Translations under genes and position numbers: made by a program
The notes under the pieces: model-generated
Databases searched by the model: none
Told to the model about the DNA's origin: nothing
The model's input: the letters and a program-made list of their open reading frames with translations, nothing else
Source: an uncultured Brevinematales bacterium
GTDB taxonomy: Bacteria; Spirochaetota; Brevinematia; Brevinematales; CAYRWR01
NCBI GenBank assembly: GCA_964428015.1
Contig: CAYRWR010000007.1
Span: 21,546-85,545, forward strand
Length of the DNA: 64,000 bases
Reading direction: 5' to 3'
Part shown: positions 30,678 to 50,400 of the stretch, one piece after another
How the letters are laid out: every line of letters begins with the position of its first letter
How positions within the stretch are numbered: the stretch's first letter is position 1

Positions 30678-30814
30678 CTAATCGATAATTTTATCACAGT
30701 ATTTATTTAATTTCAAAGAAAGGCATTTTTCACCCAGTCATTTTCAGATAAAATTGTAAACTTTAAAAATTTCTATTCAGTTTATAATAATAAACTCTGG
30801 TTTCGAGTAATTTT

Positions 30815-30905
30815 GTCATTCTGAATGGGAGTAAAGAGTCTCTCTTTCTTATAAAATATATTACTTCAACGTCACCAGGATACCCTTCTTTTCACTTAAA
30901 TCGAC
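30815..30905. repeat. Imperfect inverted repeat of the GTCAYYCTGA...AAGArTCTC type (REP-like)
   Basis: The left arm is gtcattctgaatgggagtaaagagtctc and the right arm is gatacccttcttttcacttaaatcgac (rc gtcgatttaagtgaaaagaagggtatc). It is related to the element at 51861-51962. Arm pairing is weak. Confidence 0.35.
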
Positions 30906-31009
30906 AAGCAGAGCGGTGTATAAATAGTGTCAGATTAAAACTAATATTCCTTACAATGTATACAGAAACCTTGTAATAGAGCTTATTCTATTTAAGTTCC
31001 GGGCTTAGT

Positions 31010-31038
31010 TTGCTAAATTTAGCACATTTTAGTATAAT
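31010..31038 (+). promoter_or_regulatory. Sigma70-like promoter with an overlapping 14-bp perfect palindrome
   Basis: The -35 is TTGCTA (31010-31015), the spacer is 17 nt, and the -10 is TATAAT (31033-31038). The palindrome TGCTAAATTTAGCA (31011-31024) overlaps the -35 and spacer. The OMP gene starts 34 nt downstream. Confidence 0.5.
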
Positions 31039-31071
31039 AATCATTACTGATTCCATTCTAAGGATTTATAA

Positions 31072-32268: not shown

Positions 32269-32312
32269 AGGATAGAAGTTTCCATTGGGTTCTATATAGC
32301 TGAAATATCTAA

Positions 32313-33710
32313 TTAAAAGCCGCTATCTTCCAGGTCCATATCCACGGGCGGGAGGTGGTGCGTATCCAGATTTTCAAACTTGACACATTCACCCAGGAAG
32401 GTAAGATCGATGGTATCCGTGGGACCGTTACGGTGTTTTCCCACTTTCAGTTCAGTGATGCCTTTGCGGTCCGTCTCTTTGTTGTAGTACTCATCCCGGT
32501 ACAAAAAAGCCACAATGTCGGCGTCCTGCTCAATAGCTCCCGACTCTCTTAAGTCTGACAGCAGGGGGCGTTTATCCACCCGGCTCTCTACGCCGCGGGA
32601 CAGCTGGGACAACACGATCACCGGCAAATCCAGTTCCTTGGACAGGGCTTTGAGTGAACGGGATATATAGGAGATTTCAGCGTTGCGGTTAAAGCTGGGC
32701 TTGGAGGAATCATCCGCGGTAATCAGCTGCAGGTGGTCGATTACTATTAAGTTCACTTTATACTTGGACACCACGCGGCGGGATTTGGCCCGGATCTCGT
32801 GAATGGAGATAGCCGGTGTGTCGTCCACTATGATGTTGAGGTCATGCAGACGTCCCGCTGTCTCCACCAGAGCGGCCCATTCCCCATGCGCGTCACTGAG
32901 ACGGCCCTTGCGGATTTTTTCCATGGCGATGCGGCTTTCACTGGACAGCATACGCATGGCCAGCTCCTGGTCACTCATTTCCAGTGAAAAGATGAGCACA
33001 CCGTTTTTCTTGTCCATCTGGGCGGCATTGGCGGCTATATTCAGAGCCATGGCTGTTTTTCCCATAGCGGGACGCGCCGCCAGCACGATCAGGGTCCCTT
33101 TCTGCAGACCGCCGGTGAGTTCATCAAATTTCTTAAAGCCGGTGGGCAGGCCGGTGTAGGCGCTGTCATTCTTGGACAGGCGCTGGATGCCATTGAGAGT
33201 CTCGGTGACCACATCCTTGAGCTCATTATAGGAGGTGCGCAGCTTGCGGTTGGTGACGTCGAATATGGCACGTTCCGCCATCTCCGAGACATGCTCCACC
33301 TGGGTCTGGTTCTGGAAGACATCGTCGATGATCTGATGAGAGGCCTGGATCAGGGAGCGCAGCAGGGAGCGGTCGGCCACCATGCGGGAATAATACCCCA
33401 CGCTGGACGCCGCGGGTACCCTGTCCATAAGAGAGGCCAGGTAGGCGGATCCACCCACTCTGGCCAGTTTACCTTCTGATTCTAAGCGGTCAGCCACGGA
33501 TACCAGATCGACCGGAGCATTGGTTTCCTGCAGAGCCTTGATGGCGCTGAAGATGGTATAATGCTTCTGGTCAAAAAAATCATCCGCTTTCAGTGCTTCA
33601 AAAACTATATTAATAGCCTGCTCATTATTACTGAGCATCGCACCTATGACTGCCTGTTCTGCTTCAATACTATGAGGAGGGACCCGTTTAATCAGTTCAT
33701 CATTTGCCAT
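32313..33710 (-). CDS. dnaB: Replicative DNA helicase DnaB
   Basis: The N-terminal DnaB domain has PPHSIEAEQAVIGAML. It also has Walker A ARPAMGKT and the RecA-like C-terminal motifs. Confidence 0.95.
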   Translation of the reverse strand: MANDELIKRVPPHSIEAEQAVIGAMLSNNEQAINIVFEALKADDFFDQKHYTIFSAIKALQETNAPVDLVSVADRLESEGKLARVGGSAYLASLMDRVPAASSVGYYSRMVADRSLLRSLIQASHQIIDDVFQNQTQVEHVSEMAERAIFDVTNRKLRTSYNELKDVVTETLNGIQRLSKNDSAYTGLPTGFKKFDELTGGLQKGTLIVLAARPAMGKTAMALNIAANAAQMDKKNGVLIFSLEMSDQELAMRMLSSESRIAMEKIRKGRLSDAHGEWAALVETAGRLHDLNIIVDDTPAISIHEIRAKSRRVVSKYKVNLIVIDHLQLITADDSSKPSFNRNAEISYISRSLKALSKELDLPVIVLSQLSRGVESRVDKRPLLSDLRESGAIEQDADIVAFLYRDEYYNKETDRKGITELKVGKHRNGPTDTIDLTFLGECVKFENLDTHHLPPVDMDLEDSGF

Positions 33711-33734
33711 ATTTTGGCCTGTACTCCTCCAGGA

Positions 33735-34361
33735 TTACTCCTGGTCTTCTGTACCCTCTTCAGCGGTATTTACTTCTACTTTTTCGTCTTCAAAGTCATC
33801 TTCTTCTTCGTCTTCATCTTCGTTAAAGAAGCCTTCAGTAGTAGCTTTGGAAGGGACAGCCAGGGCTTTTCTTTCCGCGGCGACTTCTTCTTTGACTTCT
33901 GATGCTACCATGTCGGGATGGTTAGGATCCTGCACTTTGAGCTTGACTTCCGCGGTCACACCTTCGTCCAGTTTGATCTTGACGGTGTGCATACCCACGG
34001 TCTTAATGTGCTGATTGACGACTTTTTTCTTTTCAATGGTAAAGCCTTTTCCGGACAGAGCGTCAGAGATATCGGCGTTGGTCACAGAACCAAACAGTTT
34101 GCCTTCATCACCGGCTTTTACTTCGATGAGCAGTTCGACTTTTTCCAGAGCTTCTTTGAGCTCACGGCTGGATTCCAGACTGGCCAGGGCTTTTTTAGCC
34201 AGGCGTTCCTGAATCTTATGCAGATAGCTTTCCTTGGCCCGGGTGGCTACATCAGCCATGCGCTGGGGCAGGAGATAATTACGGGCATAACCGTCTTTTA
34301 CTGATTTAATATCACCGGCTTTTCCCAGTCCGACCACGTTTTCCAATAATATGACTTTCAT
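33735..34361 (-). CDS. rplI: 50S ribosomal protein L9 with an acidic C-terminal extension
   Basis: The track ORF extends to 34415. The ATG at 34361 is preceded by GGAGGAAAA and gives the canonical MKVILLENV..GLGKAGDIKSVKDGYARNYLLP. About 58 extra C-terminal residues are rich in D/E (NEDEDEEEDDFEDEK). Confidence 0.9.
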   Translation of the reverse strand: MKVILLENVVGLGKAGDIKSVKDGYARNYLLPQRMADVATRAKESYLHKIQERLAKKALASLESSRELKEALEKVELLIEVKAGDEGKLFGSVTNADISDALSGKGFTIEKKKVVNQHIKTVGMHTVKIKLDEGVTAEVKLKVQDPNHPDMVASEVKEEVAAERKALAVPSKATTEGFFNEDEDEEEDDFEDEKVEVNTAEEGTEDQE

Positions 34362-34390
34362 GTTTTCCTCCAATAGTAGGCATCCATCTA

Positions 34391-35206
34391 TCATGCTCTC
34401 AAATAATGCATCCAAGAATCACTGATACCGATGCCGAAATACAACACCAGTACAAACAGAAAATAAGGTCCGGTCAGTACCAGCAGGCAGTAGAGTAGCG
34501 CCACTGACAGCATCACCGGCCATCTTTTCTTTCTGAGCCAGGTTATCAGCACCTGGAATCCCAGCACCGAGTAAACCAGGGCCAGGAACAAGGTCAGGTT
34601 GCTGGCCACCAGGCCCAGCTTATCCCATAGTCCCATCTGGTAGACCACAAAACCTGCCAGCAGACAGGCCAGGGCGGGATATACCCAGCGGTGGTCAAAA
34701 TCCCTGCTCCAGCGGTACCATCCGGTCACCGGATAGCTCTCCTGGCTGATTGCGGAACTGATGCCTGTCCAAAGGACAAAGACCAGTATTCCGGGCAGGT
34801 ATTCCAGGTAGACCCAGAAACTATATACCGCGTCTATGATCCGGGTCTTTTTGAGGCCGGGAAAGATGGCGGATATGGCATCCAGTATCCTGGTATAGCC
34901 CTGTTTAAGGGGCTCCGCTCCTACATTAAAGCCCAGGCTCAGCACCAGGACCATAACCAGAGCGGTTATTAACAATCCATGAAAAGGGGCTTCCTTTTCA
35001 GCGGACATAAACACCCTGTATCCCAGGAATGTAACCCCCAGGGCCAGGGTGGCGGCCCACACCCCGCTGCGCGTGAACAGCGCTATCAGGGTCAGGACCA
35101 GGAGCAGGAAGGGCACTCTGAAAACCAGGGCCATAGACCTGCTCACTATAAAATGCGTTCCCGTCAGGACCAGGGAGACGCACAGCAGAAAAAGGGTCTC
35201 AGCCAC
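34391..35206 (-). CDS. Polytopic membrane protein, probably DUF2232/YybS-like
   Basis: It has 7-8 hydrophobic helices. Its position between rpsR and rplI mirrors yybS in Firmicutes (rpsR...yybS-yybT-rplI-dnaC). The family assignment comes from synteny and topology only. Confidence 0.6.
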   Translation of the reverse strand: MAETLFLLCVSLVLTGTHFIVSRSMALVFRVPFLLLVLTLIALFTRSGVWAATLALGVTFLGYRVFMSAEKEAPFHGLLITALVMVLVLSLGFNVGAEPLKQGYTRILDAISAIFPGLKKTRIIDAVYSFWVYLEYLPGILVFVLWTGISSAISQESYPVTGWYRWSRDFDHRWVYPALACLLAGFVVYQMGLWDKLGLVASNLTLFLALVYSVLGFQVLITWLRKKRWPVMLSVALLYCLLVLTGPYFLFVLVLYFGIGISDSWMHYLRA

Positions 35207-35212
35207 CCTTCC

Positions 35213-35656
35213 CTATCTGTCGACGTAGGGCAACAGGGCCAGGATACGGGCTTTCTTGATCTCCTGGGACAGCATTCTCTGGTACTTAGCGGCAGTACCG
35301 GTGATGCGGCGGGGAACAATCTTGCCTGAGGGCATCACGTACTTGCGCAGCAGGTCGACATTTTTATAATTGATCATCTTGGGGTCGGTCTGACCGGTGC
35401 TGAAACGGCATACTTTTTTGGTATAAAAGAATTTTCTCTTTCCGCCGCCGCGTGAATCGCCGCGGTCACCACGGTCTCCGCGATCGCCGCCGCGGTCGCC
35501 GCCGCGTGAGTCGCCACGGGGCTTGCTGAAACGTCTTTCTTTGGGAGCGTCTTCAGCGCCTTCTTCTTTTTCAGCTACAGCTTCATCAGCGTGTACTACT
35601 ACATCTTCTACTAAAGCTTCTACGAGTTCGTCGTCTTTCTTGATATCATCTGACAT
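35213..35656 (-). CDS. rpsR: 30S ribosomal protein S18 with a ~72-aa N-terminal extension (acidic segment plus RGD/RGG repeats)
   Basis: The C-terminal 72 aa is canonical S18 (KVCRF...[12 protein letters not shown]...[10 protein letters not shown]...KYQR). The N-terminus has an acidic stretch, then [27 protein letters not shown] (nt 35441-35518). Confidence 0.9.
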
Positions 35657-35681
35657 GTTTAATCTCCTTAATCAATGGCCT

Positions 35682-36179
35682 CTAAAAAGGAACATCATCC
35701 TGGTTGTTGATATTGTCATAATCCACAGGAGTGGGATCAAAACCGGTATTGTCATAAAAGTCGTCATTAAAATCACCTGCTCCTGACGCGGGCTGATTCT
35801 GGCTCTTATTCTGACCCTGAGGCCGGGGAGCCTGAGATCCGCCGCCACCGCCGCTTCCGGCTGTGGTCAGGAACTGCACCCTTTCCGCTATGATTTCAAT
35901 AACAGACCGGTTTGAACCGTCCTGGGCCTGCCAGCGCCGCTGTTCCAGACGCCCGTCGATGCAGACCTGTTTACCCTTGGACAAAAACTGTGAGCAGTTT
36001 TCACCCATTTTGCCCCACACGATGATGTTGAAAAAACTCACGGTGTCCTGTCCGTCACGGGGCTTCCCGCCTACTGCCAGGCCGAATTTGGCGATAGCAG
36101 TACCGCTGGGGGTATACTTCAGATCGACATCACCGGCCAGTCTCCCTACGAGGGTGACCCGGTTGACATCCCAACTCAT
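35682..36179 (-). CDS. ssb: Single-stranded DNA-binding protein
   Basis: It has an OB-fold N-terminus (NRVTLVGRLAGD...), a Gly/Gln/Pro-rich linker and an acidic C-terminal tip, DDVPF. Confidence 0.95.
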   Translation of the reverse strand: MSWDVNRVTLVGRLAGDVDLKYTPSGTAIAKFGLAVGGKPRDGQDTVSFFNIIVWGKMGENCSQFLSKGKQVCIDGRLEQRRWQAQDGSNRSVIEIIAERVQFLTTAGSGGGGGSQAPRPQGQNKSQNQPASGAGDFNDDFYDNTGFDPTPVDYDNINNQDDVPF

Positions 36180-36180
36180 C

Positions 36181-36471
36181 CTAATCCTCCCGGTTTACGA
36201 GATGACGGATGACATCCTGGTCGTACTTGATGGCTGCTTCAAACACAGGAATTGCTTCCGGCTTGCCGGACACTTTGGCGAAATAGTAATACGCCTTGTG
36301 GAATCTTTCTCTGTCCCTGATGATCTCATAGGCCAGCTCTCTGACTCCAAACGTGTCTTCCTTGTCCAGCTCCAGCTCGGACTTCTTGAAATAATCCTTG
36401 ATCCTTTTGACAGTAGGGTCTACTGTCTCGCCTTCTCGAATAAGAAAAGCGATCTCATACTTTCTTGACAT
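36181..36471 (-). CDS. rpsF: 30S ribosomal protein S6
   Basis: 96 aa, starting MSRKYEIAFLI..., and the first gene of the rpsF-ssb-rpsR cluster. Confidence 0.9.
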   Translation of the reverse strand: MSRKYEIAFLIREGETVDPTVKRIKDYFKKSELELDKEDTFGVRELAYEIIRDRERFHKAYYYFAKVSGKPEAIPVFEAAIKYDQDVIRHLVNRED

Positions 36472-36724
36472 GGTACCTCCTTATGGTCTTGTCGTCCGTA
36501 TATACGGAAAGGATAGAATATTTTAAAGAATGACAAGGAATTAGTCAAGAATGTCGACAGTCCCTGGTCTTCTCTCTGCTGCAGGGAAAAAGGACTATGG
36601 GGATAGGCACACCGAAAAAGGGCAAATTTACCGCATAGGTTTAGGGAGAGCCTCTTGCCTGTACCACGTCAGCACTAGGGCAGAGGCGGCTTCCGCCGCG
36701 GGGAATATCTCCACAATAGCGGAG

Positions 36725-36850
36725 GGTCTCCTCATCCCTTCTCACCCGGGATAGGGGATCACTGTGTCCCCTGGTACTGAGTGGAGTGGCGCACCCCCTA
36801 GCCCTGGGCGGTCTGCGGCATCTTAACGCTCCGCGAATGTAGATGCTTTC
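36725..36850 (+). repeat. Copy B of the dispersed GC-rich element
   Basis: It contains tcatcCCTTCTCAC (36732-36745) and ccctgggcggtctgcggcatctTAACGctCCGCG (36801-36834), homologous to copies A and C. Its end overlaps the vapC stop codon by 2 nt. Confidence 0.45.
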
Positions 36851-37253
36851 AGCTCACCCAGTTTTCCATTTTCAGATCAGGGATCCTGGAAAAATGCTTT
36901 TGATTGTTAGTCACCAGGGTCAGATTGTGACTGAGGGCAGTGGATGCGATTAACAGGTCCAAATCATCCTGAGGCAGGCCTTGTTTCGATACATCAGCCT
37001 TGAGAAGAGCAAAACTCTCCATAACAGACCGGTCAACTTCCAGAATGGGATAGATATCAGCCAGCCGCATGACAGTAGCCAAATTCTTCTGAAAATGGCG
37101 GGATTTATGGGCACCATACAGCAGTTCGCCATAGGTCACCACGGAAATGAATTTAGGGTCATTTTTCCTGTCCAGAAAATTTTGATTCACGCCATTTTCA
37201 TTTTTAAGACTGTACATGATAATATCAGTATCAATCAAATAAAGCATTGTCAT
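36849..37253 (-). CDS. vapC: PIN-domain toxin VapC
   Basis: The track ORF extends to 37325. In-frame ATGs at 37253 and 37247 give M(TM)LYLIDTDI..., with the PIN acidic residues (IDTD, YGEL, DLLIAST, TNN.KHF). It overlaps the antitoxin stop (37231) by about 20 nt. Confidence 0.8.
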   Translation of the reverse strand: MTMLYLIDTDIIMYSLKNENGVNQNFLDRKNDPKFISVVTYGELLYGAHKSRHFQKNLATVMRLADIYPILEVDRSVMESFALLKADVSKQGLPQDDLDLLIASTALSHNLTLVTNNQKHFSRIPDLKMENWVS

Positions 37254-37509
37254 CCCCAAAGCGTTGACTGTTGGCCCTGTCTTTTTTGATATCTGAGAGA
37301 ATCTCCGCGCTACTGCGGTCATCAATCCAGCTGCCCGCCAGTTCCAGAAATTTTTCAGTAGGATTGATACCGATCCTGTTTTTGCCGGATATATAGTTTT
37401 CTAATATTTGAATCACTTCCTGACTGAGAGATCTTTTTTCTTTTTTTACCAGGGCCTGGAGTTCAGAATACAAGCTGTCTTCTATATCTCGTACCTGGAG
37501 AATAGCCAT
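37231..37509 (-). CDS. vapB: Ribbon-helix-helix antitoxin (VapB/FitA-like)
   Basis: The ATG at 37509 is preceded by AGGAGG. MAILQVRDIEDSLYSELQALVKKEKRSLSQEVIQILE matches the RHH beta-alpha-alpha pattern. It lies immediately upstream of and overlaps vapC. Confidence 0.7.
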   Translation of the reverse strand: MAILQVRDIEDSLYSELQALVKKEKRSLSQEVIQILENYISGKNRIGINPTEKFLELAGSWIDDRSSAEILSDIKKDRANSQRFGDDNALFD

Positions 37510-37638
37510 ATTTTCCTCCTTTCTTTTTAATATATCGCACCATGCATGAAATGTCATTCATTTCGCATGAACATTATATAATTTTCCGTTATATATTTTT
37601 ACAAAACAACATTGAAAAATTGAAATAAAAAAAATCAC

Positions 37639-37667
37639 TTGACATTGTTTATGTGCGCACATATAAT
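37639..37667 (+). promoter_or_regulatory. Near-consensus sigma70 promoter with an embedded palindromic operator for the second TA module
   Basis: The -35 is TTGACA (37639-37644), the spacer is 17 nt, and the -10 is TATAAT (37662-37667). A perfect 12-bp palindrome, ATGTGCGCACAT (37651-37662), lies in the spacer. An RBS AGAGGAGG follows, then the ATG at 37691. Confidence 0.65.
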
Positions 37668-37690
37668 GTGTAATAGAGGAGGTTTTTTAT

Positions 37691-37915
37691 ATGAAAAACA
37701 TAACACTATCCATAGATGATAAACTTTTATCCGCGGGAAGAGAATACGCGGCCAGACACCATATTTCTTTCAATGTTCTGGTGAGAAAACTGATAGAACA
37801 GACTGTTCTTAAAAAATCTGATCATTGGCTGGAAGACACCTTTCTACTGATGGATAAGGCTGAGGTAAAAGATAAAAAAGCAAAATGGACACGGGAGGAA
37901 TTATACCGTGTCTAA
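37691..37915 (+). CDS. Antitoxin (RHH-like) of the second PIN toxin-antitoxin pair
   Basis: 74 aa. The N-terminal ITLSIDDKLLSAGREYAARHHISFNVLVRKLIE matches the RHH pattern. It overlaps the downstream PIN gene by 8 nt. Confidence 0.65.
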   Translation: MKNITLSIDDKLLSAGREYAARHHISFNVLVRKLIEQTVLKKSDHWLEDTFLLMDKAEVKDKKAKWTREELYRV

Positions 37916-38339
37916 AATATTTCTTGATACCAACTTTCTGGTTTACAGTATCGATACCCGGGACAAAGAGAAGCATCAAAAAGCACGTTTGATTCTGGCA
38001 AAGGCTGTGGAACTGCATCTGCCGGTGATTTCTACCCAGGTCATTCAGGAGTTTTACGTGGTTTGTACTCAAAAATTAAAAATTGACCCTTTGATAATCA
38101 AAAACATTATACACAACTTCCAGAACCTGGAAATCGTGAATAATGATTTAAGCCTGGTGGAACAGGCCATCGATATCAGTATACTTTCTCAGCTGTCATT
38201 TTGGGATTCCTTAATCATTGCGGCAGCCGAAAAAGCCAATTGCGACCTGGTTCTTTCTGAAGACTTGAATTCAGGCCAGAATTACAGGGGTATAATAGTA
38301 TTGAATCCTTTTAGTGTGGAAAATTTCGATAATCTCTGA
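37908..38339 (+). CDS. vapC: PIN-domain toxin (VapC family), second module
   Basis: It has a GTG start that overlaps the antitoxin. The PIN acidic residues are present (FLDTN, QEF, FWDSLI, SED). Confidence 0.82.
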   Translation: MSKIFLDTNFLVYSIDTRDKEKHQKARLILAKAVELHLPVISTQVIQEFYVVCTQKLKIDPLIIKNIIHNFQNLEIVNNDLSLVEQAIDISILSQLSFWDSLIIAAAEKANCDLVLSEDLNSGQNYRGIIVLNPFSVENFDNL

Positions 38340-38344
38340 TTTTC

Positions 38345-40369
38345 TCAGTACTCATCCCCGCTGAACTGGGCATGGTTCAGTACCTTGTCTTCGATTTCCT
38401 GTTTTTCTTCAGGGGAGGCATCGGGGGCGGTTTTGGAGCCGCTGCGCCGGAAGCGTTCCAGCCAGTCCCTACCCAGCAAAGTAAACCCGCGGGCCGCCGC
38501 GGCGGTACTGAAGGCGGTGGTAGTCTCGGACTTGGGGCCTGTGCCCGGCCCGACACCCACATAGAACCCCGCCGCCAGCAGGGCTCCCCTCACCTGGGTG
38601 GAGGTGGAATAAGTCAATAGCCTGGTCCCGGCGGGGGCGCACAGACGGAACAGCCTGGAAAAAGAAGCATAATTCCACAAGGGTCCATTGGTATTCAGTG
38701 AAAACATGTCATAATAGATACAGCGCGGCGCGGGAGCCTGGCTGCACCGCTCCTCAAAATCCCCTTCCAGTAAGACCCATTCGATCCGTCCATCCGGAGA
38801 TACCCATTGGCCCTGGCGGAGCAGGCTACCCGGCCCGGCATGCCTGACATGAGGAAAGTGCGCGGTATGTTTACAGGCCAGCCGCAGGGAGTCCAGGTCA
38901 TTCTCAAAACTGAATATACGTATGCGTAGTGTGGAATCGGCCTCCAGCAGTTTTTCCGCCTCCATGATGGTCACCATGGCATTGGTACCCGCGCCCAGAC
39001 CCACATCCCAGATCACAAAATCTGCCTGGTCCTGCCCCTGTATAGCTTGCCTCAGTCCGCTTTGTTCAAAATACAGCGTCCGGGACTCCACCATGGGGTC
39101 GGAGACAGAGTGCATGGTCTCCCCGGAGGAGCGCTGACGGATGCTGTTGAAGCCGGGTCCCTCTACTATCTCATAATCCCCCAGGGTGTAGGCTTTTTTG
39201 CGTACAGGCCTGCTTGGGGGTAATTTGGGATGCTCCCCGTCGGGGGCAGACAGCAGCTCCCGGTGGGTGTTATAAAAGGACAGGAAGCTATTGTCCAGGA
39301 TATGCCGGCGCATATTGTCCATAAGCTGTTTATAATAGGCCAGGTTGTGCCGTCCGATGAGGCTGTACCCCAGGAATTCTTTGGTCTTGACCAGGTGGTG
39401 CAGATAGGCCCGGGAGTAGCTGCGGCAGGTGGGGCAGGCGCAGTTTTCGTCGAGGGGGCGGTCGGACAGTTTGTAGACTGAGCGCCTCAGCTCTACCCGT
39501 CCCTGTGAGGTATAGGCCAGCCCCTGCTGGGACACATAGGTGGGGATGATGCAGTCAAACATGTCCATCCCCCGGTGCACCGCCTCCAGCAGGTCCAGGG
39601 GCGTACCCACTCCCATGAGATAACGGGGCCGGTCGGGGGGGAGCAGTGCCGCGGTGAGAGCGGTGATGTCCTTGCGCTCCTCTTCCTCCTCCCCTACCGC
39701 CAGTCCCCCGATGGCATAGCCGTCAAAGGGCAGAGAGGTGATCTGAGCGGCGCTCCGCTTACGCAGGGCCGGAAAGCAGCCCCCCTGTACGATTCCGAAC
39801 AGGGACTGGGGAGAGTCCTGCCGGGCGGCCAGGCTCCGCTCCGCCCAACGCGCGGTGAGCTCCACCGCCTCCCGGCAGACATCGAGGGGTGAGCGGGAGG
39901 ACGCGCACTGGTCCAGGGCCATCATGATATCACTGCCTATGGCCTTCTGGGTATCGATACTGAGCTCGGGGCTGAGCAGGTAGCCGCGTCCGTCCACGTA
40001 GGACCGGAAAGAGGCTCCTTCTTCCGTGATTTTAAATGACTGTGACATGGAAAATATCTGGAATCCCCCGCTGTCGGTCAGGACCGAACGGGGCCAGTTC
40101 ATAAATTTGTGGATACCGCCCAGTGTCCGGAACACCTCTGTCCCGGGCCGGAGCAGGAGATGGTAGGTATTGGCCAGCAGTACCGGATAGCCCATGTCTT
40201 CCACGGCAGGGGTGGGCTGATTGCGCAGAGCGGCAAAGGTAGCCACAGGCATGAACAGAGGGGTCAGGACCTCATTGTGCAGAGTTTTAAAGCGGCAGGC
40301 CCGTGCCGCCGTACCGTCCGCCCTGGCCTCCACCTCAAAGCCCAGCCTGGAATCAGAAACATCCTTCAT
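38345..40369 (-). CDS. tgt: Queuine/preQ1 tRNA-ribosyltransferase (Tgt) fused to a C-terminal MnmC-type (Methyltransf_30/DUF752-like) SAM methyltransferase domain
   Basis: The N-terminal ~380 aa has LTDSGGFQ, DGYAIGGLAVGE, LMGVGTPLDLLEAV and the zinc site CACPTC...H. The C-terminal ~280 aa has ETMHS...VESRTLYF, VIWDVGLGAGTN, YYDMFSLNTNGPLW and LLTYSTSTQVRGALLAAGF, resembling the MnmC methyltransferase domain. It is a single uninterrupted 674-aa ORF and is visibly GC-rich (about 60-70% in sampled lines). Confidence 0.85.
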   Translation of the reverse strand: MKDVSDSRLGFEVEARADGTAARACRFKTLHNEVLTPLFMPVATFAALRNQPTPAVEDMGYPVLLANTYHLLLRPGTEVFRTLGGIHKFMNWPRSVLTDSGGFQIFSMSQSFKITEEGASFRSYVDGRGYLLSPELSIDTQKAIGSDIMMALDQCASSRSPLDVCREAVELTARWAERSLAARQDSPQSLFGIVQGGCFPALRKRSAAQITSLPFDGYAIGGLAVGEEEEERKDITALTAALLPPDRPRYLMGVGTPLDLLEAVHRGMDMFDCIIPTYVSQQGLAYTSQGRVELRRSVYKLSDRPLDENCACPTCRSYSRAYLHHLVKTKEFLGYSLIGRHNLAYYKQLMDNMRRHILDNSFLSFYNTHRELLSAPDGEHPKLPPSRPVRKKAYTLGDYEIVEGPGFNSIRQRSSGETMHSVSDPMVESRTLYFEQSGLRQAIQGQDQADFVIWDVGLGAGTNAMVTIMEAEKLLEADSTLRIRIFSFENDLDSLRLACKHTAHFPHVRHAGPGSLLRQGQWVSPDGRIEWVLLEGDFEERCSQAPAPRCIYYDMFSLNTNGPLWNYASFSRLFRLCAPAGTRLLTYSTSTQVRGALLAAGFYVGVGPGTGPKSETTTAFSTAAAARGFTLLGRDWLERFRRSGSKTAPDASPEEKQEIEDKVLNHAQFSGDEY

Positions 40370-40624
40370 AATCAGCAGCCTCTCGCGGGATAAGTATTTT
40401 TTAACATAAATAAGTCATCATTAATATTACCATCGAAATCTACTTCACTGCACCTACTTTATTTCCTTTTTTTCTCTTGGCCTTTATAGTAATATATAGG
40501 TCCAGAATATGAATTTATTACATCTTTTGAATCATTTTGATTTTGGTGTACTTGAGATTTATATGTGAAAAGTGAGATTCCTGTCTTATAAAAACAAATT
40601 TAAATAGTACTTTAATATTTATTT

Positions 40625-41659
40625 TCATTTTATATCTCCTAACGAATTAGGAATATTCTCATAATCATAAAACCGTTCTAATTCAGCACCTGTATTAATA
40701 TCCCTTAAATAAATTCTCAAATCATTTCCTTGAAATCCAACCCACACCGCAAAATTGTTCGAATTTTTGTATGAGAGAGTTTTACTTAATTCTTTTTTTA
40801 AATCTAATATTTCGTATCTTTCATTGATTTTATCATTATATATATATAATTTTCCATCATGACTAAAAGAATTTTGTTGGGGTATCGAACTAAAATGATT
40901 TTTTTTATCTAAAATGATATTAGTTTTATTATTTATAACAAGCAATCTAGTTTCTGTTTCTGGTAAATTAAGAACTAATTCTACATAATTTCCATTTTCT
41001 GAAATATTACTATATTCAACTTGTCCAAATGTTATATATACCCATTTTTTTCTAAAACTTAAATCGTAGACATTAACTTGAGTCATCGGAAAGGTATCGG
41101 ATAAGTCTACTTTATTACTTTGATCATAGATAAAGAACATTTGAATTTCCAAAATACTTTTTCCATCTTTAGAAGTAAGTAAACTTTTTGATATTATTTC
41201 AGAAATATCGTTTTGTTCGTCGGGAACAATATTATTATTAAGACAAATTTTTTTAAATATTTGATCATTTTTTTGTTTTAGAATGTTTGTCACTAAGGTG
41301 TTATTTGGCACCCTTAAAATGATAGTAGAGTTAGAAACAATAATTAATTGAGAATAACCTTGCATTTTGAAATTATCATAATTCATGATAGATAGGTTTA
41401 TAGCCCTATTTTCAAAAGCATCACCAATCCATTTCTCTATAATTGAATTATAGAATTCTTTTTTTATCCTAATAAAATTATGTATTTTTATTTCATTTTT
41501 AAAATACAATATTGTTTCATTTCTATTCGACAAATTAAATTTCGGCTCTATTTCACTAGATTGTGTATTTTTTTCCTCTGGCTTCACTTGTCCGCATGAG
41601 GCCAGGAGGACCAGGATGGTTACAATGGTGGTGGTTTTGGTGGACAGGGTGGTTTTCAT
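40625..41659 (-). CDS. Hypothetical lipoprotein with an extremely AT-rich mature part
   Basis: The lipobox is LLASC. There is no recognisable domain. The first ~80 nt (signal peptide) are about 54% GC, and the remaining ~950 nt are about 17-25% GC in sampled lines. Confidence 0.7.
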   Translation of the reverse strand: MKTTLSTKTTTIVTILVLLASCGQVKPEEKNTQSSEIEPKFNLSNRNETILYFKNEIKIHNFIRIKKEFYNSIIEKWIGDAFENRAINLSIMNYDNFKMQGYSQLIIVSNSTIILRVPNNTLVTNILKQKNDQIFKKICLNNNIVPDEQNDISEIISKSLLTSKDGKSILEIQMFFIYDQSNKVDLSDTFPMTQVNVYDLSFRKKWVYITFGQVEYSNISENGNYVELVLNLPETETRLLVINNKTNIILDKKNHFSSIPQQNSFSHDGKLYIYNDKINERYEILDLKKELSKTLSYKNSNNFAVWVGFQGNDLRIYLRDINTGAELERFYDYENIPNSLGDIK

Positions 41660-41731
41660 GTATGTACTCCGTTCTACCCCTCGATGCGATCCTCTGTGTG
41701 GTCCACTCGGGGGCTGTGTTTTTTTATAGCG

Positions 41732-41760
41732 AGAGTCTTAAGTGAGACTCTGTTTTTTTT
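41732..41760 (+). terminator. Orphan plus-strand intrinsic terminator
   Basis: A 7-bp stem pairs agagtct (41732-41738) with agactct (41745-41751) around a 6-nt loop, followed by g + T8 (41753-41760). No plus-strand gene lies upstream. Confidence 0.5.
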
Positions 41761-41792
41761 ATTGTAGCGGCGTGTTTGCCGTACCGTGGGGT

Positions 41793-41841
41793 CTCGGTAC
41801 AATTTTCCGCGCGAGCGCGGAAAATCACTCGACCTCCAATC
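41793..41841 (-). repeat. Hairpin repeat copy 1 (inverted relative to copies 2 and 3)
   Basis: The reverse complement reads GATTGGAGgtCGAGTGATTTTccgcgctcgcgcggAAAATTGTACCGAG. Confidence 0.6.
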
Positions 41842-41968
41842 GGGTCGGTGGGACACGAGGGCTAAACAGCCTTTTCTCTTTTTTCTGTTTGTCTTACCTC
41901 ACCCTGTGATTAATTAACATTGGCAAATATCTAAACTGTCTCCTATAAATATCTTATCCAACCTTAGC

Positions 41969-42037
41969 GATTGGACTTCGAGCGGTGTGCTGAGACTGCC
42001 GAAGTATGATTTTCGACGTAGTAGAAAATCGTACCGA
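41969..42037 (+). repeat. Hairpin repeat copy 2 (with a ~20-nt insertion)
   Basis: The sequence is GATTGGActtCGAGcggtgtgctgagactgccgaagtaTGATTTTcgacgtagtaGAAAATCGTACCGA. Confidence 0.5.
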
Positions 42038-42106
42038 AATGTCCGCTCTATTCCTACCAACAGAAGCTCTAGCTCCGTCTCCTCCAAGTCCCGAGTCTAT
42101 CTAAAA

Positions 42107-42154
42107 GATTGGAGTCCGAGTGATTTTTCGATGTAGTCGAAAAATTGTACCGAG
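42107..42154 (+). repeat. Hairpin repeat copy 3
   Basis: The sequence is GATTGGAGtcCGAGTGATTTTtcgatgtagtcgaAAAATTGTACCGAG. The stem sequence differs from copy 1 but pairing is preserved. Confidence 0.6.
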
Positions 42155-42188
42155 GACCCGTTCAACCCTACCCCCCCTCCCTCTATAC

Positions 42189-43520
42189 CTACTGCCTCTT
42201 CTTCACGATCATCAGCACCACGGCGGCTGTGGCTACAGCCAGGTTGGGGAACCACTCCATGAGGACGGGCAGGGAGCCTTTGGAGATCAGGGTCTCCACC
42301 CCTACCTTGACCCCGTAGTAGGTCACCATGATCAGAAAGCTGATGCCCAGGCCTTCGTTGCGGCCGCTGCGGGCATTGAACATGCCCAGGAACAGGCTCA
42401 GAAAGGCGAACAGAAAGGCCGAGACCGGGGCCGTGAATTTCTCGTGGTACTTCTGAATATATTTGGTGGGGATGGACTGTTTGATATTAATCACCTGTTT
42501 ATCCACTTCCCGGAGCTGATTCAGTACATTGGTATACTGCGCGGCGTTGGACGGCACAGAGGCTTTGTCTGCCTTTTTTAATTTAGCTTTCTCAATCTGG
42601 AGGCGGGACTGGAGTTGATCGCGCAGGGTGTACTGCTGTTTGAGCTTGGTCATGGTGGTGCCGGTGAGCCGGGCGATCTCGGCCCGGAGCTCGGCCTCAT
42701 TCATGGTGTCGGGGGTCTTGCGGTAGTAGTCCTCGGGCAGGTTGACATAGATATTGAGGGCCAGGTAGTTAAAGGAGGAAATAAAGAAATGCTCCTCCTC
42801 CCGGCCGGACTGGTCTTTGGCTTCCAGCACTTCGGTGAGAGTGCCGTTCTGGAATTTCATGATGTAGTGTTCCGCGTTCTCGGGATTGGAGATGAGGCGG
42901 GCTTTTTTAGCCTTGATGATCTTTCGGCCCCCGGTATCCACCACGTAGACATTGCGCAGGACTTCGTAGCCCTCTTCGTTGACCAGTTTTTCAAAGGATA
43001 TCTTGTAGATGCCCATGGACAGGCTGGACTGCTCCTTGAGGGAGATAGCCGGCTTTTGGGCCAGGAGCTTGGCATTGAGGCGGATGAGATTGTAATTAGC
43101 GCGTACCTCCACTGTATCCTTGAAATAAAACGCGAAGAAGCTAATAAAGATACCGAACAGTATCCCCGGAAGTACTACCCGGGGCATGGAAATACCGCAG
43201 GACTTCATAGCGGTGAGTTCACTGTCCTGGGACAGCCGGGACATGGTCAGGAGATAGCCGGGCAGGACCGCGAATGGAATAGAGAAAGAAATAACCATAG
43301 GCAGCTGGTTGAGGAGGAGCAGCAGGACCTGGTTGAAGGGAAAATTGTACTCAAAGTACATCTTGGCCAGCCATACCAGCTGGTTGAGCATGACCAGAAA
43401 GGTAAAAAACAGCAGTCCGAACAGGTAGTTAGGCAGCAGATCCCGGTAAAAATAGCGGTCCAGCCGGGAAAACAAGACACGTTGGAAAAAGTTGTTTTTA
43501 ACAGATACCCGGGGGGCCAT
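42189..43520 (-). CDS. LptF/LptG (YjgP/YjgQ)-family permease
   Basis: The track ORF extends to 43631. The ATG at 43520 gives MAPRVSVKNNFFQRVLFSRLDRYFYRDLLPNY..., the typical family N-terminus. It has three N-terminal TM helices, a large periplasmic insert, and three C-terminal TM helices. Confidence 0.8.
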   Translation of the reverse strand: MAPRVSVKNNFFQRVLFSRLDRYFYRDLLPNYLFGLLFFTFLVMLNQLVWLAKMYFEYNFPFNQVLLLLLNQLPMVISFSIPFAVLPGYLLTMSRLSQDSELTAMKSCGISMPRVVLPGILFGIFISFFAFYFKDTVEVRANYNLIRLNAKLLAQKPAISLKEQSSLSMGIYKISFEKLVNEEGYEVLRNVYVVDTGGRKIIKAKKARLISNPENAEHYIMKFQNGTLTEVLEAKDQSGREEEHFFISSFNYLALNIYVNLPEDYYRKTPDTMNEAELRAEIARLTGTTMTKLKQQYTLRDQLQSRLQIEKAKLKKADKASVPSNAAQYTNVLNQLREVDKQVINIKQSIPTKYIQKYHEKFTAPVSAFLFAFLSLFLGMFNARSGRNEGLGISFLIMVTYYGVKVGVETLISKGSLPVLMEWFPNLAVATAAVVLMIVKKRQ

Positions 43521-43644
43521 AGTTACATCCTGTGATTTTGATTCTGGGGATATAGTATCATAATACACGTCAGTTATCAAAAAATAGGATTTTTTCGTAG
43601 GAATGATTGCATTTAATAACAGACAGGTCAAGGTATGCTATATC

Positions 43645-43792
43645 CTATCACCGCAGAGACGATGCCCGCGGCAGGCGTTAGGACCACGGCACCGCCCAGG
43701 GGTCGGCATATCGCCCCGACCGGGCTACCAGGAGACGGGGTATATCCAGTGACCGCGTGAGAAGGCATAACCGCCACCAGGGGACCCGGTCC
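43645..43792 (-). repeat. Copy C of the dispersed GC-rich element
   Basis: The reverse complement reads ggtcccctggtggcggttatgCCTTCTCACgcggtcactgg ... ccctgggcggtgccgtggtccTAACGcctgCCGCGggcatcgtctctgcggt. It lies between the dnaJ terminator and the lptF-like start. Confidence 0.5.
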
Positions 43793-43795
43793 CGG

Positions 43796-43824
43796 AAAAA
43801 AATCGGCCCTGACGAAGGGCCGAC
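43796..43824 (-). terminator. Intrinsic terminator of the grpE-dnaK-dnaJ operon
   Basis: On the minus strand the stem CGGCCCT, loop tcgtc and stem AGGGCCG are followed by a + T7. It lies about 120 nt downstream of the dnaJ stop. Confidence 0.7.
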
Positions 43825-43942
43825 TCTGCATAGAAAAAATGTTAGCTAAAAGAGATGACAGGCTGCTGTCAGCCCTCTCCTGGAATGCCGGGCCGCTGTC
43901 CCGGTACAGAACCGTGTAGGCCCTTTTTCCAGGGAAAAAAAC

Positions 43943-45055
43943 CTAAAGCTCCTCGCCCAGCTCCCGGGAAAAATCCTTGAGCAGGGACTTGGCTTTGGCG
44001 GACATGTTCTTGGGCACGTCGATCACCACTTCGTAGAAAATGTCTCCCCGCACTTTGGAACGGATATCGGGGGCGCCGTCGCCTTTGAGGCGGATCTGAT
44101 GGCCCACCTGGACTCCTGTGGGGATATTGATGGACTTGCTGCCCTCCAGGGTCTTGACATCGATCTTGCCGCCGAAGATAGCCCGGGGATAGGAAATATG
44201 CAGTTTGGCATGGAGGTCCTTGCCGTCGCGTTCAAATTCGGTATTGTTGCGCACGCCGATCAGGACATAGAGGTCGCCCCGGGGGCCGCCGTTTTTGCCC
44301 ACATCGCCTTCACCGGAGACGCGCAGGCGCATGCCGTCTTCCACCCCGGCGGGTATCTTGACGGTGATGACCGAGTCTTTTTCCTTGAGGCCGTGGCCGC
44401 GGCAGGAGGGACAGGGGTCGCTGATCTGGGTGCCGGTACCATGACAGGCGGGACAGGTAGTCTGCACGGTGAAAAAGCCCTGTGAGGTACGCACCGCGCC
44501 GCTGCCTCCACAGGTGGTACAGGCGGTGGGGGCTTTGCCGGATCGGCTGCCCGTGCCGTGACAGGTATCGCACACTTCATTGCGCTTGACTTTGAGTTTG
44601 AGATTTTTATCGTTTAATATATCGGTAATATCCAGATTGATATCGGCCCGGATGTCGGAACCTCGCGCTCTGCGGGGGCCGCTCTCGCGGGTACGCTGAC
44701 GGGTACCGCCGCCGAAGAAAGTGTCGAAGATGTCATCAAACACACCGCCGCCGCCCATGCCGCCGCCGAAGATATCGTTGAAATTGAAGCCGCCCTGGAA
44801 TCCGCCGGCTCCGCCTCCCCCGCCCTGCTGGAACGCGGCATGCCCGAACTGGTCGTACATTTTGCGTTTTTCCCCATTGGACAGGACATCGTAGGCTTCG
44901 GTAGCTTCTTTGAATTTATCTTCGGCTACCTTGTCGCCCGGATTGCGGTCGGGGTGGTATTGCATCGCCTTTTTGCGGTAGGCTTTTTTGATCTCATCGT
45001 CATTGGCATTCCGGGGAACGCCCAGGATCTCGTAAAAATCCTTTTCGGTGGCCAT
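43943..45055 (-). CDS. dnaJ: Molecular chaperone DnaJ
   Basis: It has a J-domain with HPDRNPGD, a G/F-rich region and four CxxCxGxG zinc motifs ([32 protein letters not shown]). Confidence 0.96.
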
Positions 45056-45122
45056 GAACAGCTCCTGATTTAAAATAAAGACATACCGCGGGACAGGGTC
45101 CCGCGGTGAGATTCAGTTTTTC

Positions 45123-47024
45123 TTATTTATCGTCGTCTACGACTTCAGCGTCTACGACTTTTTCACCCTTGTCGTCACCGCCCTGGTCATTGCCGCCGGG
45201 AGCGGGGCCGCCGGGCTGAGGTCCGCCCTGGGGATAGAGCTTCTTGGCGATCTCTTCAGAGATCTTGGACAGCTCTTCCATGGCTTTTTTGATGCGGGGC
45301 TCATCGTCGGTCTTGATGGCTTCTTTGACGGCTTCTATCTTGGCTTCCGCTTCTTTCTTTTCTTTTTCGTCTACTTTGTCCTTGCTTTCACGCAGGGCGT
45401 TTTCCAGTCCCATAGCCAGTCCGTCGGCCTGGTTTTTGAGTTCGACCAGTTCTTTGGCTTTTTTGTCTATTTCGGCGTTCTTTTCCGCGTCTTCCTGCAT
45501 GCGCTTCACTTCTTCTTCAGACAGACCGGAGCTGGACTCGATACGGATCTTCTGTTCCTTACCGGTGCCCATGTCCTTGGCGGATACATGGAGGATACCA
45601 TTAGCATCGATGTCAAAGGAGACTTCGATCTGGGGGACGCCGCGGGGGGCGGGTGGAATGCCGTCCAGGTTGAACATTCCCAGAGTACGGTTGTCCTTGG
45701 CCATGGGGCGTTCACCCTGCAGGACATGGATGGTCACCATAGTCTGGTTGTTGTCCGCCGTGGAGAAGATCTGTGACTTCTTGGCGGGGATGGTGGTATT
45801 ACGGGTGATCAGCACGGTGCAGACACCGCCCAGGGTCTCAATTCCCAGAGACAGAGGAGTCACGTCCAGGAGCAGCAGGTCTTTGACCTCTCCGGCCAGT
45901 ACTCCGCCCTGAATAGCCGCGCCCATAGCCACTACTTCGTCGGGGTTGACACCCTTGCTGGGGTCTTTGCCGAAGACTTTTTTGACCATATCCACGATGA
46001 AGGGCATACGGGTCTGTCCGCCTACCAGGATCACTTCGCTGAGCTGGCTCTTACTGATACCGGCGTCTTTGATCACGGCTTCACAGGGAGCGATAGCCCG
46101 TTCGATGATGGGCCGGGTGATATTTTCCAGCTGGGCGCGGGAAATGGTCATCTGGAGGTGCTTGGGCCCGCTGGCATCGGCAGTGATAAAGGGCAGGTTG
46201 ACCTGAGACTCCATCTTGGAGGACAGTTCAATCTTGGTCTTTTCAGCCGCGTCTTTGAGACGCTGTACGGCCATAGTGTCGCTGGCCAGGTCTATGCTGG
46301 ATTCTTTTTTGTATTCCGCGATGATATAGTCCATGAGGGCGTGGTCCAGGTCATCGCCTCCCAGGTGGGTATCCCCGTTGGTGGCCTTGACCTCAAACAC
46401 ACCGTCGCCGATTTCCAGGATGGAGATATCGAAAGTACCGCCGCCAAAGTCAAATACCGCGACCAATCCTTCTTTTTTCTTGTCCAGTCCATAAGCCAGG
46501 GCAGCGGCTGTAGGTTCATTGATGATACGCTCCACTTTGAGCCCGGCTATAGTACCGGCGTCTTTGGTAGCCTGACGCTGACTGTCGTTAAAATAAGCGG
46601 GTACGGTGATGACCGCGCTTTCGACCGTAGTGCCCAGATAATCTTCAGCGGCCTGCTTGAGCTTCTGCAGGACCCGGGCGGAGATCTCCTGGGGGCTGAA
46701 GTCGCCGGAGCGGGTGGAAAAACGCACGTCGCTGTGCTGACCGGCTATCACTTTGTAGGGTACCTTGGCGATTTCGCGGCCGGCTTCGTCATAGCGCATC
46801 CCGATGAAGCGCTTGGCGGAGTAGATGGTGTTGTCGTGGTTGGTGACCATCTGATTTTTGGCAGGCTGTCCTACTACGGTCTCTCCCTTTTCTGTAAAAG
46901 CTACGATGGAGGGAGTGGTACGAGCGCCTTCCTGGTTAGGGATGACAACAGGCTGACCGTTTTCCATGATGGCGACTACTGAATTGGTAGTCCCCAGGTC
47001 GATTCCGATTACTTTTCCTGGCAT
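45123..47024 (-). CDS. dnaK: Molecular chaperone DnaK (Hsp70)
   Basis: The track ORF starts at 47042. The ATG at 47024 (RBS GAGAGGA) gives [15 protein letters not shown] and lies 4 nt after the grpE stop. Hsp70 signatures are present throughout. Confidence 0.97.
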
Positions 47025-47028
47025 TTTG

Positions 47029-47604
47029 TTATCCTCTCTCATTATCTTTCTTTATTTTTTTGGCTACTTTGACCTTGGCATGGCGCAGTACCGCCTCTCC
47101 CATCATGTAGCCTCTTTCAAACTCTTCCACCACTGTGCTGTCAAAGGGGAGGTCTTCCCTTTCTTCGATCATGAGCGCCTCATGCAGATTGGGGTCAAAC
47201 TCCTGGTTCACGCATTCGATAGGCTTGACATGATAGGTCTCAAACAGATTGTGAATCTGCTGGTGCACCATTTTGATGCCTTCCATCAGGGCGTCAAAAT
47301 TGCGCGACTCTTCACTGCTCTTGATACCCCTGTCAAAATTATCCAGTACCGGCAGAATGGCAGAGACCAGCTCCCGGTTGGCTGTGACGCGGTATTCTTC
47401 TTTTTCCTTGAGGGTGCGTTTGCGGTAATTATCAAACTCGGCAGCTTTGCGCAACAGCATATCATGCAGTTCCAGTTTTTCAGCTTCCAGTTTTTCTAAT
47501 TTCTGCTGGAGTTCATCCTCATGATGCTTCTTTTTGTCTTTTTTGTGATTCTTGTTTTCCTCAGGCTGGAGTTCATCCTTGGCTTGAGTCTCATTCTGAG
47601 ACAT
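47029..47604 (-). CDS. grpE: Nucleotide exchange factor GrpE
   Basis: The track ORF starts at 47631. The ATG at 47604 is preceded by GGAGGAGGAG. It has the GrpE coiled-coil and a C-terminal beta domain ([10 protein letters not shown]). Confidence 0.9.
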
Positions 47605-47755
47605 GTTCTCCTCCTCCAAATCAATCAGCATTTAAATTTACAAATAACACACCCAATCGTCAAGTGGAAATCAGGGGATTGCTTATAATAGCGCTGAAAT
47701 ATTAATCATTTTCGGTAACTTCCGAAATATATAGAGTAATATTGAGGAGAGTTTT

Positions 47756-48796
47756 ATGAAAAAATTCCTGTTGATCCTGGCCGGCCTGCTCTGCCTATCC
47801 CCTGCCCTGGCGGAAGAGAAACCCAAAGGACTGGACCCGGTAGTGCTGGCGCAGTGGCAGAAAAACATGGATTACGGTATTTCTGCCCAAAGGATCGATA
47901 CCATCAAAGCCATCTCCCAGAATAAAAGCAAAGAAGCTTATTATCTGATAGAAAAAGCCTTGACCTCAGATCAGAATTCAGGGGTCAGAGGGGAAGCCGC
48001 CTACACTCTCATCAATCTCAAGCAGGATAATGCACAGGTATGGCTGCAGGCCCTCAAGTCGGAAAAAGACACTGAAGTACTGCGCCGCATTGTGTTCGGG
48101 ATTTCTGAGCTGAAAATAGCCAGCGCCGGGCCTCAACTCTACATTATTATGACCAATTATGTCTCCAATCCCAAAGAAAGCTACCTCACGGCCTCAGCTA
48201 TTCGGGCTATGGGAGAACTGAGCTACAAGACTGCGGGTAAAGCTATTTTTTCTCTCTTAACCAATCTGGAGATGTCTCCTGAGATACGCTCCGCCTCAGC
48301 CATAGCCATGGGTACCCTGGGCGGCGCGGATGAAATGAAAGAGGTGCGCTACCTGGTGGACAATCCCGGAGAGGATAAGGCGGTCCGCATGTACTGTGCC
48401 TACGCCCTGGGGAAATCAGGAGACAAACAGTACATAGATCTTTTGTTTAATCTCATAGCCAATGAAAAGGAAGACCTCTACATCCGGTTGTGGGCCATTG
48501 CGGGACTGGAATTTATCAAAGACCCTGTAGTCAGCGACAAGCTGATAGAGCTCACCAAAGTGGACCATAAGCAGGTCAGAGGCAAAGCTATCGAAACCCT
48601 GGGCAAGATGAAAGAGACCAAAGCCAAAGAAATCCTCATCTACAAAGCTAAATTTGACCCTGATTTTGAAGTGCAGAAAGCTGCCAAGAAAGCCCTGGTA
48701 GACATGGGCTATGACCTGGATGAAATAGCTAAAAAAGAAAAAGAAGCCCAGCAGGAAAAAGAAAAGCAAAAAGAAATGATGATGAATAAAAAATAA
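47756..48796 (+). CDS. Secreted HEAT/PBS-lyase-type repeat protein
   Basis: It has a signal peptide (LLILAGLLCLSPALA), repeated ~30-aa helical units with the V/IR..A..ALG pattern, and a Lys/Glu-rich tail. Confidence 0.72.
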   Translation: MKKFLLILAGLLCLSPALAEEKPKGLDPVVLAQWQKNMDYGISAQRIDTIKAISQNKSKEAYYLIEKALTSDQNSGVRGEAAYTLINLKQDNAQVWLQALKSEKDTEVLRRIVFGISELKIASAGPQLYIIMTNYVSNPKESYLTASAIRAMGELSYKTAGKAIFSLLTNLEMSPEIRSASAIAMGTLGGADEMKEVRYLVDNPGEDKAVRMYCAYALGKSGDKQYIDLLFNLIANEKEDLYIRLWAIAGLEFIKDPVVSDKLIELTKVDHKQVRGKAIETLGKMKETKAKEILIYKAKFDPDFEVQKAAKKALVDMGYDLDEIAKKEKEAQQEKEKQKEMMMNKK

Positions 48797-48828
48797 GCCA
48801 TAACATTTTTTCTACCACCTCCCATCAT

Positions 48829-48851
48829 AAAGCCCCTGTAACAGGGGCTTT
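48829..48851 (+). terminator. Terminator-like hairpin after the HEAT-repeat gene
   Basis: A perfect 10-bp stem pairs aaagcccctg with caggggcttt around a 3-nt loop. The U-tract is short, so termination efficiency is uncertain. Confidence 0.5.
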
Positions 48852-48912
48852 ATGGCGTTAGGGTTCCTTGTGATTTTCCCGGCATTGGGGTACAATATAT
48901 CCGGAGGCCGTC

Positions 48913-50373: not shown

Positions 50374-50400
50374 TTTATCCCTATCTCACAGGAGTCAAAT

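Follow-up and report, generated by a model that had tools for sequence, protein, structure and literature searches.

In Mycoplasma pulmonis, the vsa genes join a leader-encoding 5′ segment to alternative bodies, and switching of this type depends on a site-specific recombinase together with recombination sites inside the 5′ coding region, and on silent cassettes. In Borrelia, the erp genes have a common leader and a 5-residue sorting sequence, and the rest of each open reading frame (ORF) is of independent origin, brought in by recombination (PMC10016077). ORFans, for their part, are reported to be AT-richer than other genes (PMC3514957; PMC12315717), and an orphan gene can be low in GC because it is foreign or because it diverged rapidly while mutation was AT-biased (reviewed in PMC12315717). 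We describe here a locus that can be set beside these systems. It lies in a 64-kb stretch of DNA, which we analysed as a whole and call the window, and which is part of a 128-kb NCBI contig of a metagenome-assembled genome (MAG). The locus holds a lipoprotein gene (40625–41659, minus strand; 344 aa) that is a compositional chimera: its 5′ part, with the ribosome-binding site, the signal peptide and the lipobox, is host-style, and the remainder is not.

The lipoprotein gene occupies most of an AT-rich island. A two-segment maximum-likelihood fit of GC placed the change points at 40390 and 41575, which almost coincide with the limits of the ~1.2-kb island drawn in the initial annotation (40385–41580). 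GC is ~24% within the island; outside it, GC is 58% towards tgt and 48% towards lptF, and the mean of the window is 45%. Sliding windows of 200 nt show 21–26.5% GC across 40400–41599, a peak of 69.5% within tgt (39700–39899) and 51–61% over most of the length of lptF and dnaJ, in agreement with the values that had been sampled earlier (~17–25% inside the island, ~70% in one line of tgt and 55–60% in lptF and dnaJ). The content of the island is simple: a single ORF, that of the lipoprotein, then a 235-nt non-coding tail. With an overall GC of 26.7% and a GC3 of 0.22, this ORF is the compositional outlier among the 46 plausible ORFs of the window. The other 45 range from 0.38 to 0.60 in GC and from 0.33 to 0.75 in GC3, and the highest GC3 values (0.71–0.75) are those of tgt, lptF and dnaJ, which adjoin the island or lie near it. 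Deviant composition together with deviant codon usage is a criterion of horizontal acquisition, and the coding part of the island deviates in both (24% GC, and GC3 of 0.18 versus 0.33–0.75). The same GC is found elsewhere in non-genic DNA, since the stretches 6901–7400 and 30501–31200, mostly intergenic, are also at 24–29%. Hence, the composition of the island is unique for a gene of the window but not for DNA of this genome, and base composition alone cannot prove a foreign origin. One of these stretches (6901–7400) covers the annotated 5′ end of the ORF at 4667–7021, whose true start may be further downstream.

The initial annotation had placed the compositional break inside the lipoprotein ORF, and this is where we find it. 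The ORF begins MKTTLSTKTTTIVTILVLLASCG and is preceded by a ribosome-binding site of host-type composition (GGAG, 7 nt 5′ of the ATG; 41660–41670, minus strand). Codons 1–22 read M-K-T-T-L-S-T-K-T-T-T-I-V-T-I-L-V-L-L-A-S-C, with the lipobox L-A-S↓C. The first 21 encode, in host-type codons, the signal peptide MKTTLSTKTTTIVTILVLLAS (41597–41659, minus strand), and they are followed by Cys22, which is predicted to be lipidated, and a short host-type tether, the two reading CGQVKPE (41575–41596, minus strand). This segment ends at the change point 41575, where an A7 run adjoins it. We recognised lipoproteins by a charged n-region, a hydrophobic core and a lipobox of the form [LVI][ASTVI][GAS]C within ~15–35 residues; here, the n-region has two Lys, the hydrophobic core is 11 residues long and the lipobox is found in MKTTLSTKTTTIVTILVLL-A-S-C22. 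A scan of the window with the lipobox pattern picks up this ORF and a lipoprotein at 8141–9853. From its leader and its residue content, the product should be an exported, membrane-anchored lipoprotein with a body rich in Asn, Lys and Ile.

The change in composition along the ORF is abrupt. GC3 is 0.77 in codons 1–22; codons 1–27 are at 53% GC with a GC3 of 0.70, close to the ~54% first estimated for the opening ~80 nt, and codons 28–344 are at 24% GC with a GC3 of 0.18, as expected from the earlier remark that everything after ~41575 is AT-rich. The break is an effect of synonymous codons and not of amino acids. Codons for Thr, Leu, Val, Ile, Ala and Ser end in G or C in 15 of 18 cases in codons 2–22 versus 23 of 124 after codon 28 (Fisher test, p = 1e-7). 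All seven Thr codons of the leader are ACC, and 12 of the 14 that follow are ACA or ACT; Leu is encoded by CTG or CTC in the leader (4/4) and mostly by TTA or TTG afterwards (21/28). The leader thus counts seven ACC and three CTG, plus GTC, CTC and GCC, and its choices (ACC, CTG, ATC, GCC, TCC) are those that tgt, lptF, dnaJ and dnaK also prefer. The switch occurs ~7 codons past Cys22, at the A7 homopolymer (41568–41574).

The AT-rich segment (40625–41574, minus strand; 24% GC) comprises residues ~29–344 and the stop codon. It encodes a mature domain rich in Asn, Lys and Ile, in which the FYMINK residues make up 45% and the GARP residues 10%. GC decreases from the first codon position to the third (GC1 0.31, GC2 0.24, GC3 0.18). 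The stop-free run in the island spans 316 codons, whereas the longest run in 5000 shuffles had a mean of 65 and a maximum of 194. The lipoprotein ORF is a real gene and not a chance ORF, and the ordering of the codon positions together with the length of the stop-free run shows that it has long been coding under AT-rich conditions.

The initial annotation had recognised no domain in the 344-aa product, and neither did we: Pfam, NCBIfam, PHROGs and PADLOC gave no significant match (the strongest were SPO1_gp41, E = 0.03, and phrog_24400, E = 0.1). Among PDB sequences, the top match had E = 0.014 and was spurious. Neither tblastn searches of phage and plasmid collections nor a scan of viral contigs returned a match to the lipoprotein. 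We then relied on a collection of about 15 billion proteins, searched twice. A word-indexed search of 5.8 billion protein clusters returned the lipoprotein itself alone, and an exhaustive phmmer search of 1.84 billion representatives returned the lipoprotein itself and one other protein (P0004, E = 3e-5). The latter consists of 41-residue tandem repeats that resemble beta-propeller blades. A profile built from its five units matches, marginally, one 22-residue stretch of the lipoprotein, NSNNFAVWVGFQGNDLRIYLRD (residues 299–320); two other stretches were not significant, and we dropped the beta-propeller identity, which had only this single match behind it. The structure prediction proposed at the outset was run, with a single-sequence AlphaFold2 model, and gave no usable fold (pLDDT 34.6). 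In the collections searched, the product is an orphan without known relatives.

Between the lipoprotein stop codon and tgt lies the AT-rich non-coding tail (40390–40624, minus strand; GC about 25%), which either arrived with the insertion or is intergenic DNA of native type. Stop codons break all its six reading frames. One of these frames, reading GPIYYYKGQEKKRK, a stop and then ..EVDFDGNINDD, was considered as a decayed repeat of the MORN/YwqK type and dropped, as hmmscan gave no support. One promoter-like site is predicted in the tail, on the minus strand (40569–40540), and no minus-strand terminator is predicted between the lipoprotein gene and tgt. The last ~20 nt directly before the tgt ATG, from the change point at 40390, are of host type and carry a Shine-Dalgarno-like motif, GAGAGG (40370–40389, minus strand). 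Since the DNA upstream of tgt is that of the AT-rich island only and shows no minus-strand terminator, tgt probably shares a transcript with the lipoprotein gene or is expressed from a promoter in the tail. Neither Rfam nor tRNA matches were found in or near the island, and we found no direct or inverted repeats, nor target-site duplications, at 40390 or 41575.

The DNA on the lptF side of the lipoprotein gene has structures of its own. Three terminator-like hairpins with T-runs lie on the plus strand (41696–41719, 41732–41751 and 41857–41874, within 41696–41884), upstream of the lipoprotein gene and antisense to it, and no gene on that strand reads into them. Their role may be to stop antisense transcription that leaves the island, or they may be relics of an earlier arrangement. 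Downstream of lptF, towards the lipoprotein gene, is a repeat region (41788–42159) with three copies of a ~55–75-nt unit, two direct and one inverted (41782–41848, minus strand; 41962–42050 and 42100–42165, plus strand). The unit reads GATTGGA..CGAG..hairpin..AAAAT.GTACCGA, with flanks that are conserved between copies and a hairpin stem that differs. The region has inverted arms of 54 nt with 86–88% complementarity, and its fold energy of −134.8 kcal/mol is low relative to shuffles (z = −5.3). We found no further copies of the unit in the window and no Rfam match; the region could be a REP- or MITE-like element.

The genes around the island are mostly core genes: rpsF-ssb-rpsR-rplI-dnaB lie beyond tgt, and the opposite flank has lptF, dnaJ, dnaK and grpE. 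The DnaK protein shares 88% identity with its counterpart in MAG GCA_964537555.1, which we call the nearest relative, 77–78% with those of Brevinematales MAGs and Thermospira aquatica, and 64–66% with those of Leptospira, which places the host among uncultured spirochaetes related to Brevinematales. The tgt gene (38345–40369, minus strand; 674 aa, 60% GC) encodes a Tgt fused to an MnmC2-like methyltransferase domain (PF01702, 3.6e-134; PF05430, 2.3e-11; TIGR00430; NF033855), a fusion that Leptospira, Chthoniobacterales, Bdellovibrionota and other MAGs also have, at 52–63% identity. On the opposite side, the LptF/LptG-family permease (42189–43520, minus strand; 443 aa, GC3 0.75; PF03739, 1.7e-55; start according to the Logan gene call P0005) stands alone after dnaJ. 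It shares only 49% identity with the LptF of the nearest relative and may be a divergent paralogue or the product of a relocated gene. The closest matches in collections reach about 62–63% identity for the tgt fusion and 56% for LptF. Two divergent VapBC-like modules at 39–44% GC lie between rpsF and tgt and form a second accessory patch by tgt. One is on the minus strand (antitoxin 37231–37557, PIN 36849–37325) and the other on the plus strand (antitoxin 37691–37915, PIN 37908–38339). There are no integrases, transposases or recombinases in the window, the genes near the island being housekeeping or VapBC, and no tRNA genes in the window either.

Comparison with other genomes places the end of synteny at the island region. 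The nearest relative keeps HEAT-grpE-dnaK-dnaJ and diverges right after dnaJ, where it has an aldehyde dehydrogenase gene, and its lptF adjoins lptG on another contig. Neither the order lptF-X-tgt nor a homologue of the lipoprotein was present in 80 loci fetched via the tgt fusion, and the order was likewise absent from the nearest relative itself. The collections offered no relative near enough to have the locus in common. Within the window, the genome is compositionally mosaic: genes in 32300–50400 have GC3 of 0.57–0.75 and most others of 0.36–0.55. The orthologues of grpE-dnaK-dnaJ in the nearest relative have GC3 of only 0.36–0.44, from which it appears that the lineage of the host, or this region of its genome, has shifted strongly towards GC.

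We favour an explanation in which a single recombination event placed AT-rich DNA of foreign origin after the leader of a resident lipoprotein, and we give it a probability of roughly 55%. A Brevinematales-related spirochaete would have had a resident lipoprotein gene between lptF and tgt, whose body was replaced or interrupted by ~1.2 kb of DNA from a much more AT-rich regime, the likely donor being an unsampled low-GC phage, plasmid or other bacterium. The join would have been made in frame, ~7 codons after the predicted lipidated Cys and at the A7 run, and the rest of the resident gene would have been deleted to ~20 nt before the start codon of tgt. In such an event the host would supply the ribosome-binding site, the signal peptide, the lipobox, the first residues of the tether and presumably the promoter, and the incoming DNA an intact mature domain of 316 codons and the 235-nt tail that now immediately precedes tgt. 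The Sec pathway would export the product, lipidation at Cys22 would anchor it to a membrane, and it may act as an accessory, lineage-specific envelope protein. The sharp change points and the synonymous-codon switch inside the ORF argue for this explanation, as do the coding history of the body, the end of synteny right after dnaJ, the tgt-side junction in an independent assembly and the erp precedent in another spirochaete. In addition, the GC3 of 0.18 is far below the values of all other genes of the window (0.33 or more) and of the genes of the nearest relative (0.36–0.50), and the two VapBC-type modules show that this region of core genes is already interrupted by accessory DNA. Against it, no collection searched returned a donor or a homologue, the window shows no mobile-element genes and no repeats at the junctions, and the junction at 41575 and the coding sequence are found in the one MAG contig only. 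On composition and codon usage alone, the island is likely to be foreign. The initial annotation had gone as far as proposing a foreign mature domain behind a resident leader: the chimeric structure that this implies is borne out by the steps in composition and codon usage, and the foreign source is tempered by the missing donor, by an ordinary dinucleotide signature and by intergenic DNA of the same GC.

These last three points are also those that would be expected if the gene were a native, fast-evolving orphan, whose body drifted to the AT-rich mutational equilibrium of the genome under weak codon selection. The intergenic stretches of the window give an idea of where this equilibrium might lie. 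The dinucleotide signature of the island (δ* of 0.102) is within the normal range of the window, where 26 of 153 random segments of 1186 nt have a higher value (mean of all segments 0.078, sd 0.028); hence, the island does not have an atypical signature in this test, which is of low power at 1.2 kb. The exhaustive search yielded no donor, and low GC is also known to arise in rapidly diverging genes (PMC12315717). Drift, however, cannot take GC3 from 0.77 to 0.18 within ~20–30 nt, nor can it spare the leader alone, and no gene of the window or of the nearest relative approaches a GC3 of 0.2. The 5′ ends of genes are usually not GC-enriched, which also counts against a native origin of the contrast between leader and body. 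We therefore regard a native origin of the whole gene as unlikely.

The contrast between leader and body could also be an artefact, if AT-rich reads of another organism had been threaded between lptF and tgt during metagenome assembly. The source is indeed a MAG assembled from metagenome runs, and we compared it with the Logan assemblies of runs SRR13617028, SRR13617029 and SRR13617032, in which the flanking genes are identical. The coding sequence and the junction at 41575 are attested by the one NCBI contig only: on the lptF side, the Logan contigs of the three runs end at 42214, 42047 and 41798, in or next to the repeat region, and the protein collection holds no Logan fragment of the lipoprotein ORF, though it does hold the flanking genes. 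This is weak evidence, because Logan contigs are short here (1.8–7.2 kb) and break readily, including at an ordinary position (38300); in a low-coverage genome whose contigs break there and in repeats, missing coverage is unremarkable. In contrast, the tgt-side junction was assembled independently together with 218 nt of the island (40390–40608), as contig L081 of SRR13617032 is 100% identical to the window over 38300–40608. A chimera would moreover require two false joins that return to the same genome, and it would have to leave an ORF of 344 codons that starts with a canonical leader and keeps its frame to the end. Such an artefact is, in our view, distinctly improbable.

The initial annotation had offered a hypervariable cassette as the alternative to a foreign one. 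Such a locus could be a programmed expression site in which mature-domain cassettes are swapped by recombination behind a fixed promoter and leader, so that the population is hypervariable. We find this very unlikely: the junction does resemble that of erp in following closely on the leader and a short tether, and strain variation could also cause the Logan contigs of three runs to stop before the gene, but these breaks are explained by repeats and low coverage, the 64-kb window has one copy of the leader and no second AT-rich promoterless ORF, alternative cassette, recombinase or junction repeat resembling a recombination site, and an exact scan of JGI metagenome contigs for a 30-mer of the leader gave 0 matches. 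There is accordingly only a slim chance that the leader (promoter, ribosome-binding site, signal peptide, lipobox and tether) is a landing pad that recurrently captures and exchanges unrelated cassettes in the manner of Erp or Vsa. In that case, the AT-rich body would be one of several cassettes circulating in a free-living, uncultured Brevinematales population.

If a single recombination did build this gene, the locus would be a clean natural case of an orphan coding sequence that becomes a working envelope protein by borrowing a leader for secretion and lipidation. It would have done so in one in-frame recombination event, which bears on the debate about how bacterial orphan genes originate and come to be expressed. 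In practice, this concerns a single accessory gene in the MAG of an uncultured spirochaete. Since nothing points to a dedicated mechanism, the locus is of limited wider importance. The locus looks like an orphan gene built by recombination, an event of an ordinary and known kind, here in an uncultured lineage.

The resemblance to described systems is partial in each case. The erp genes of Borrelia burgdorferi (OspE/F-related, with their 'upstream homology box') also encode lipoproteins of a spirochaete, in which the promoter, the leader and the first mature residues have one origin and the rest is unrelated (PMC10016077), and here too the junction falls a few residues past the Cys. However, erp genes are multicopy on cp32 prophages, with many alleles behind one leader, whereas ours is a single gene on a chromosome-like contig, with no second leader known, and protein searches revealed no sequence similarity between the lipoprotein and Erp proteins. 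The vsa genes of Mycoplasma pulmonis likewise join one lipoprotein-leader 5′ segment to a body, a likeness of arrangement that we draw from general knowledge of vsa and not from a sequence comparison; their recombinase, inverted recombination sites and silent cassettes are all absent from the 64-kb window. AT-rich ORFan islets share with this locus the lack of homologues, a composition far more AT-rich than that of the genome and the insertion of a single gene between core genes. Yet at 344 aa the product exceeds the typical short orphan, and the island has an ordinary dinucleotide signature. Orphan genes in general do not show a compositional junction in frame behind a leader of host type, and this sets the locus apart from such islets.
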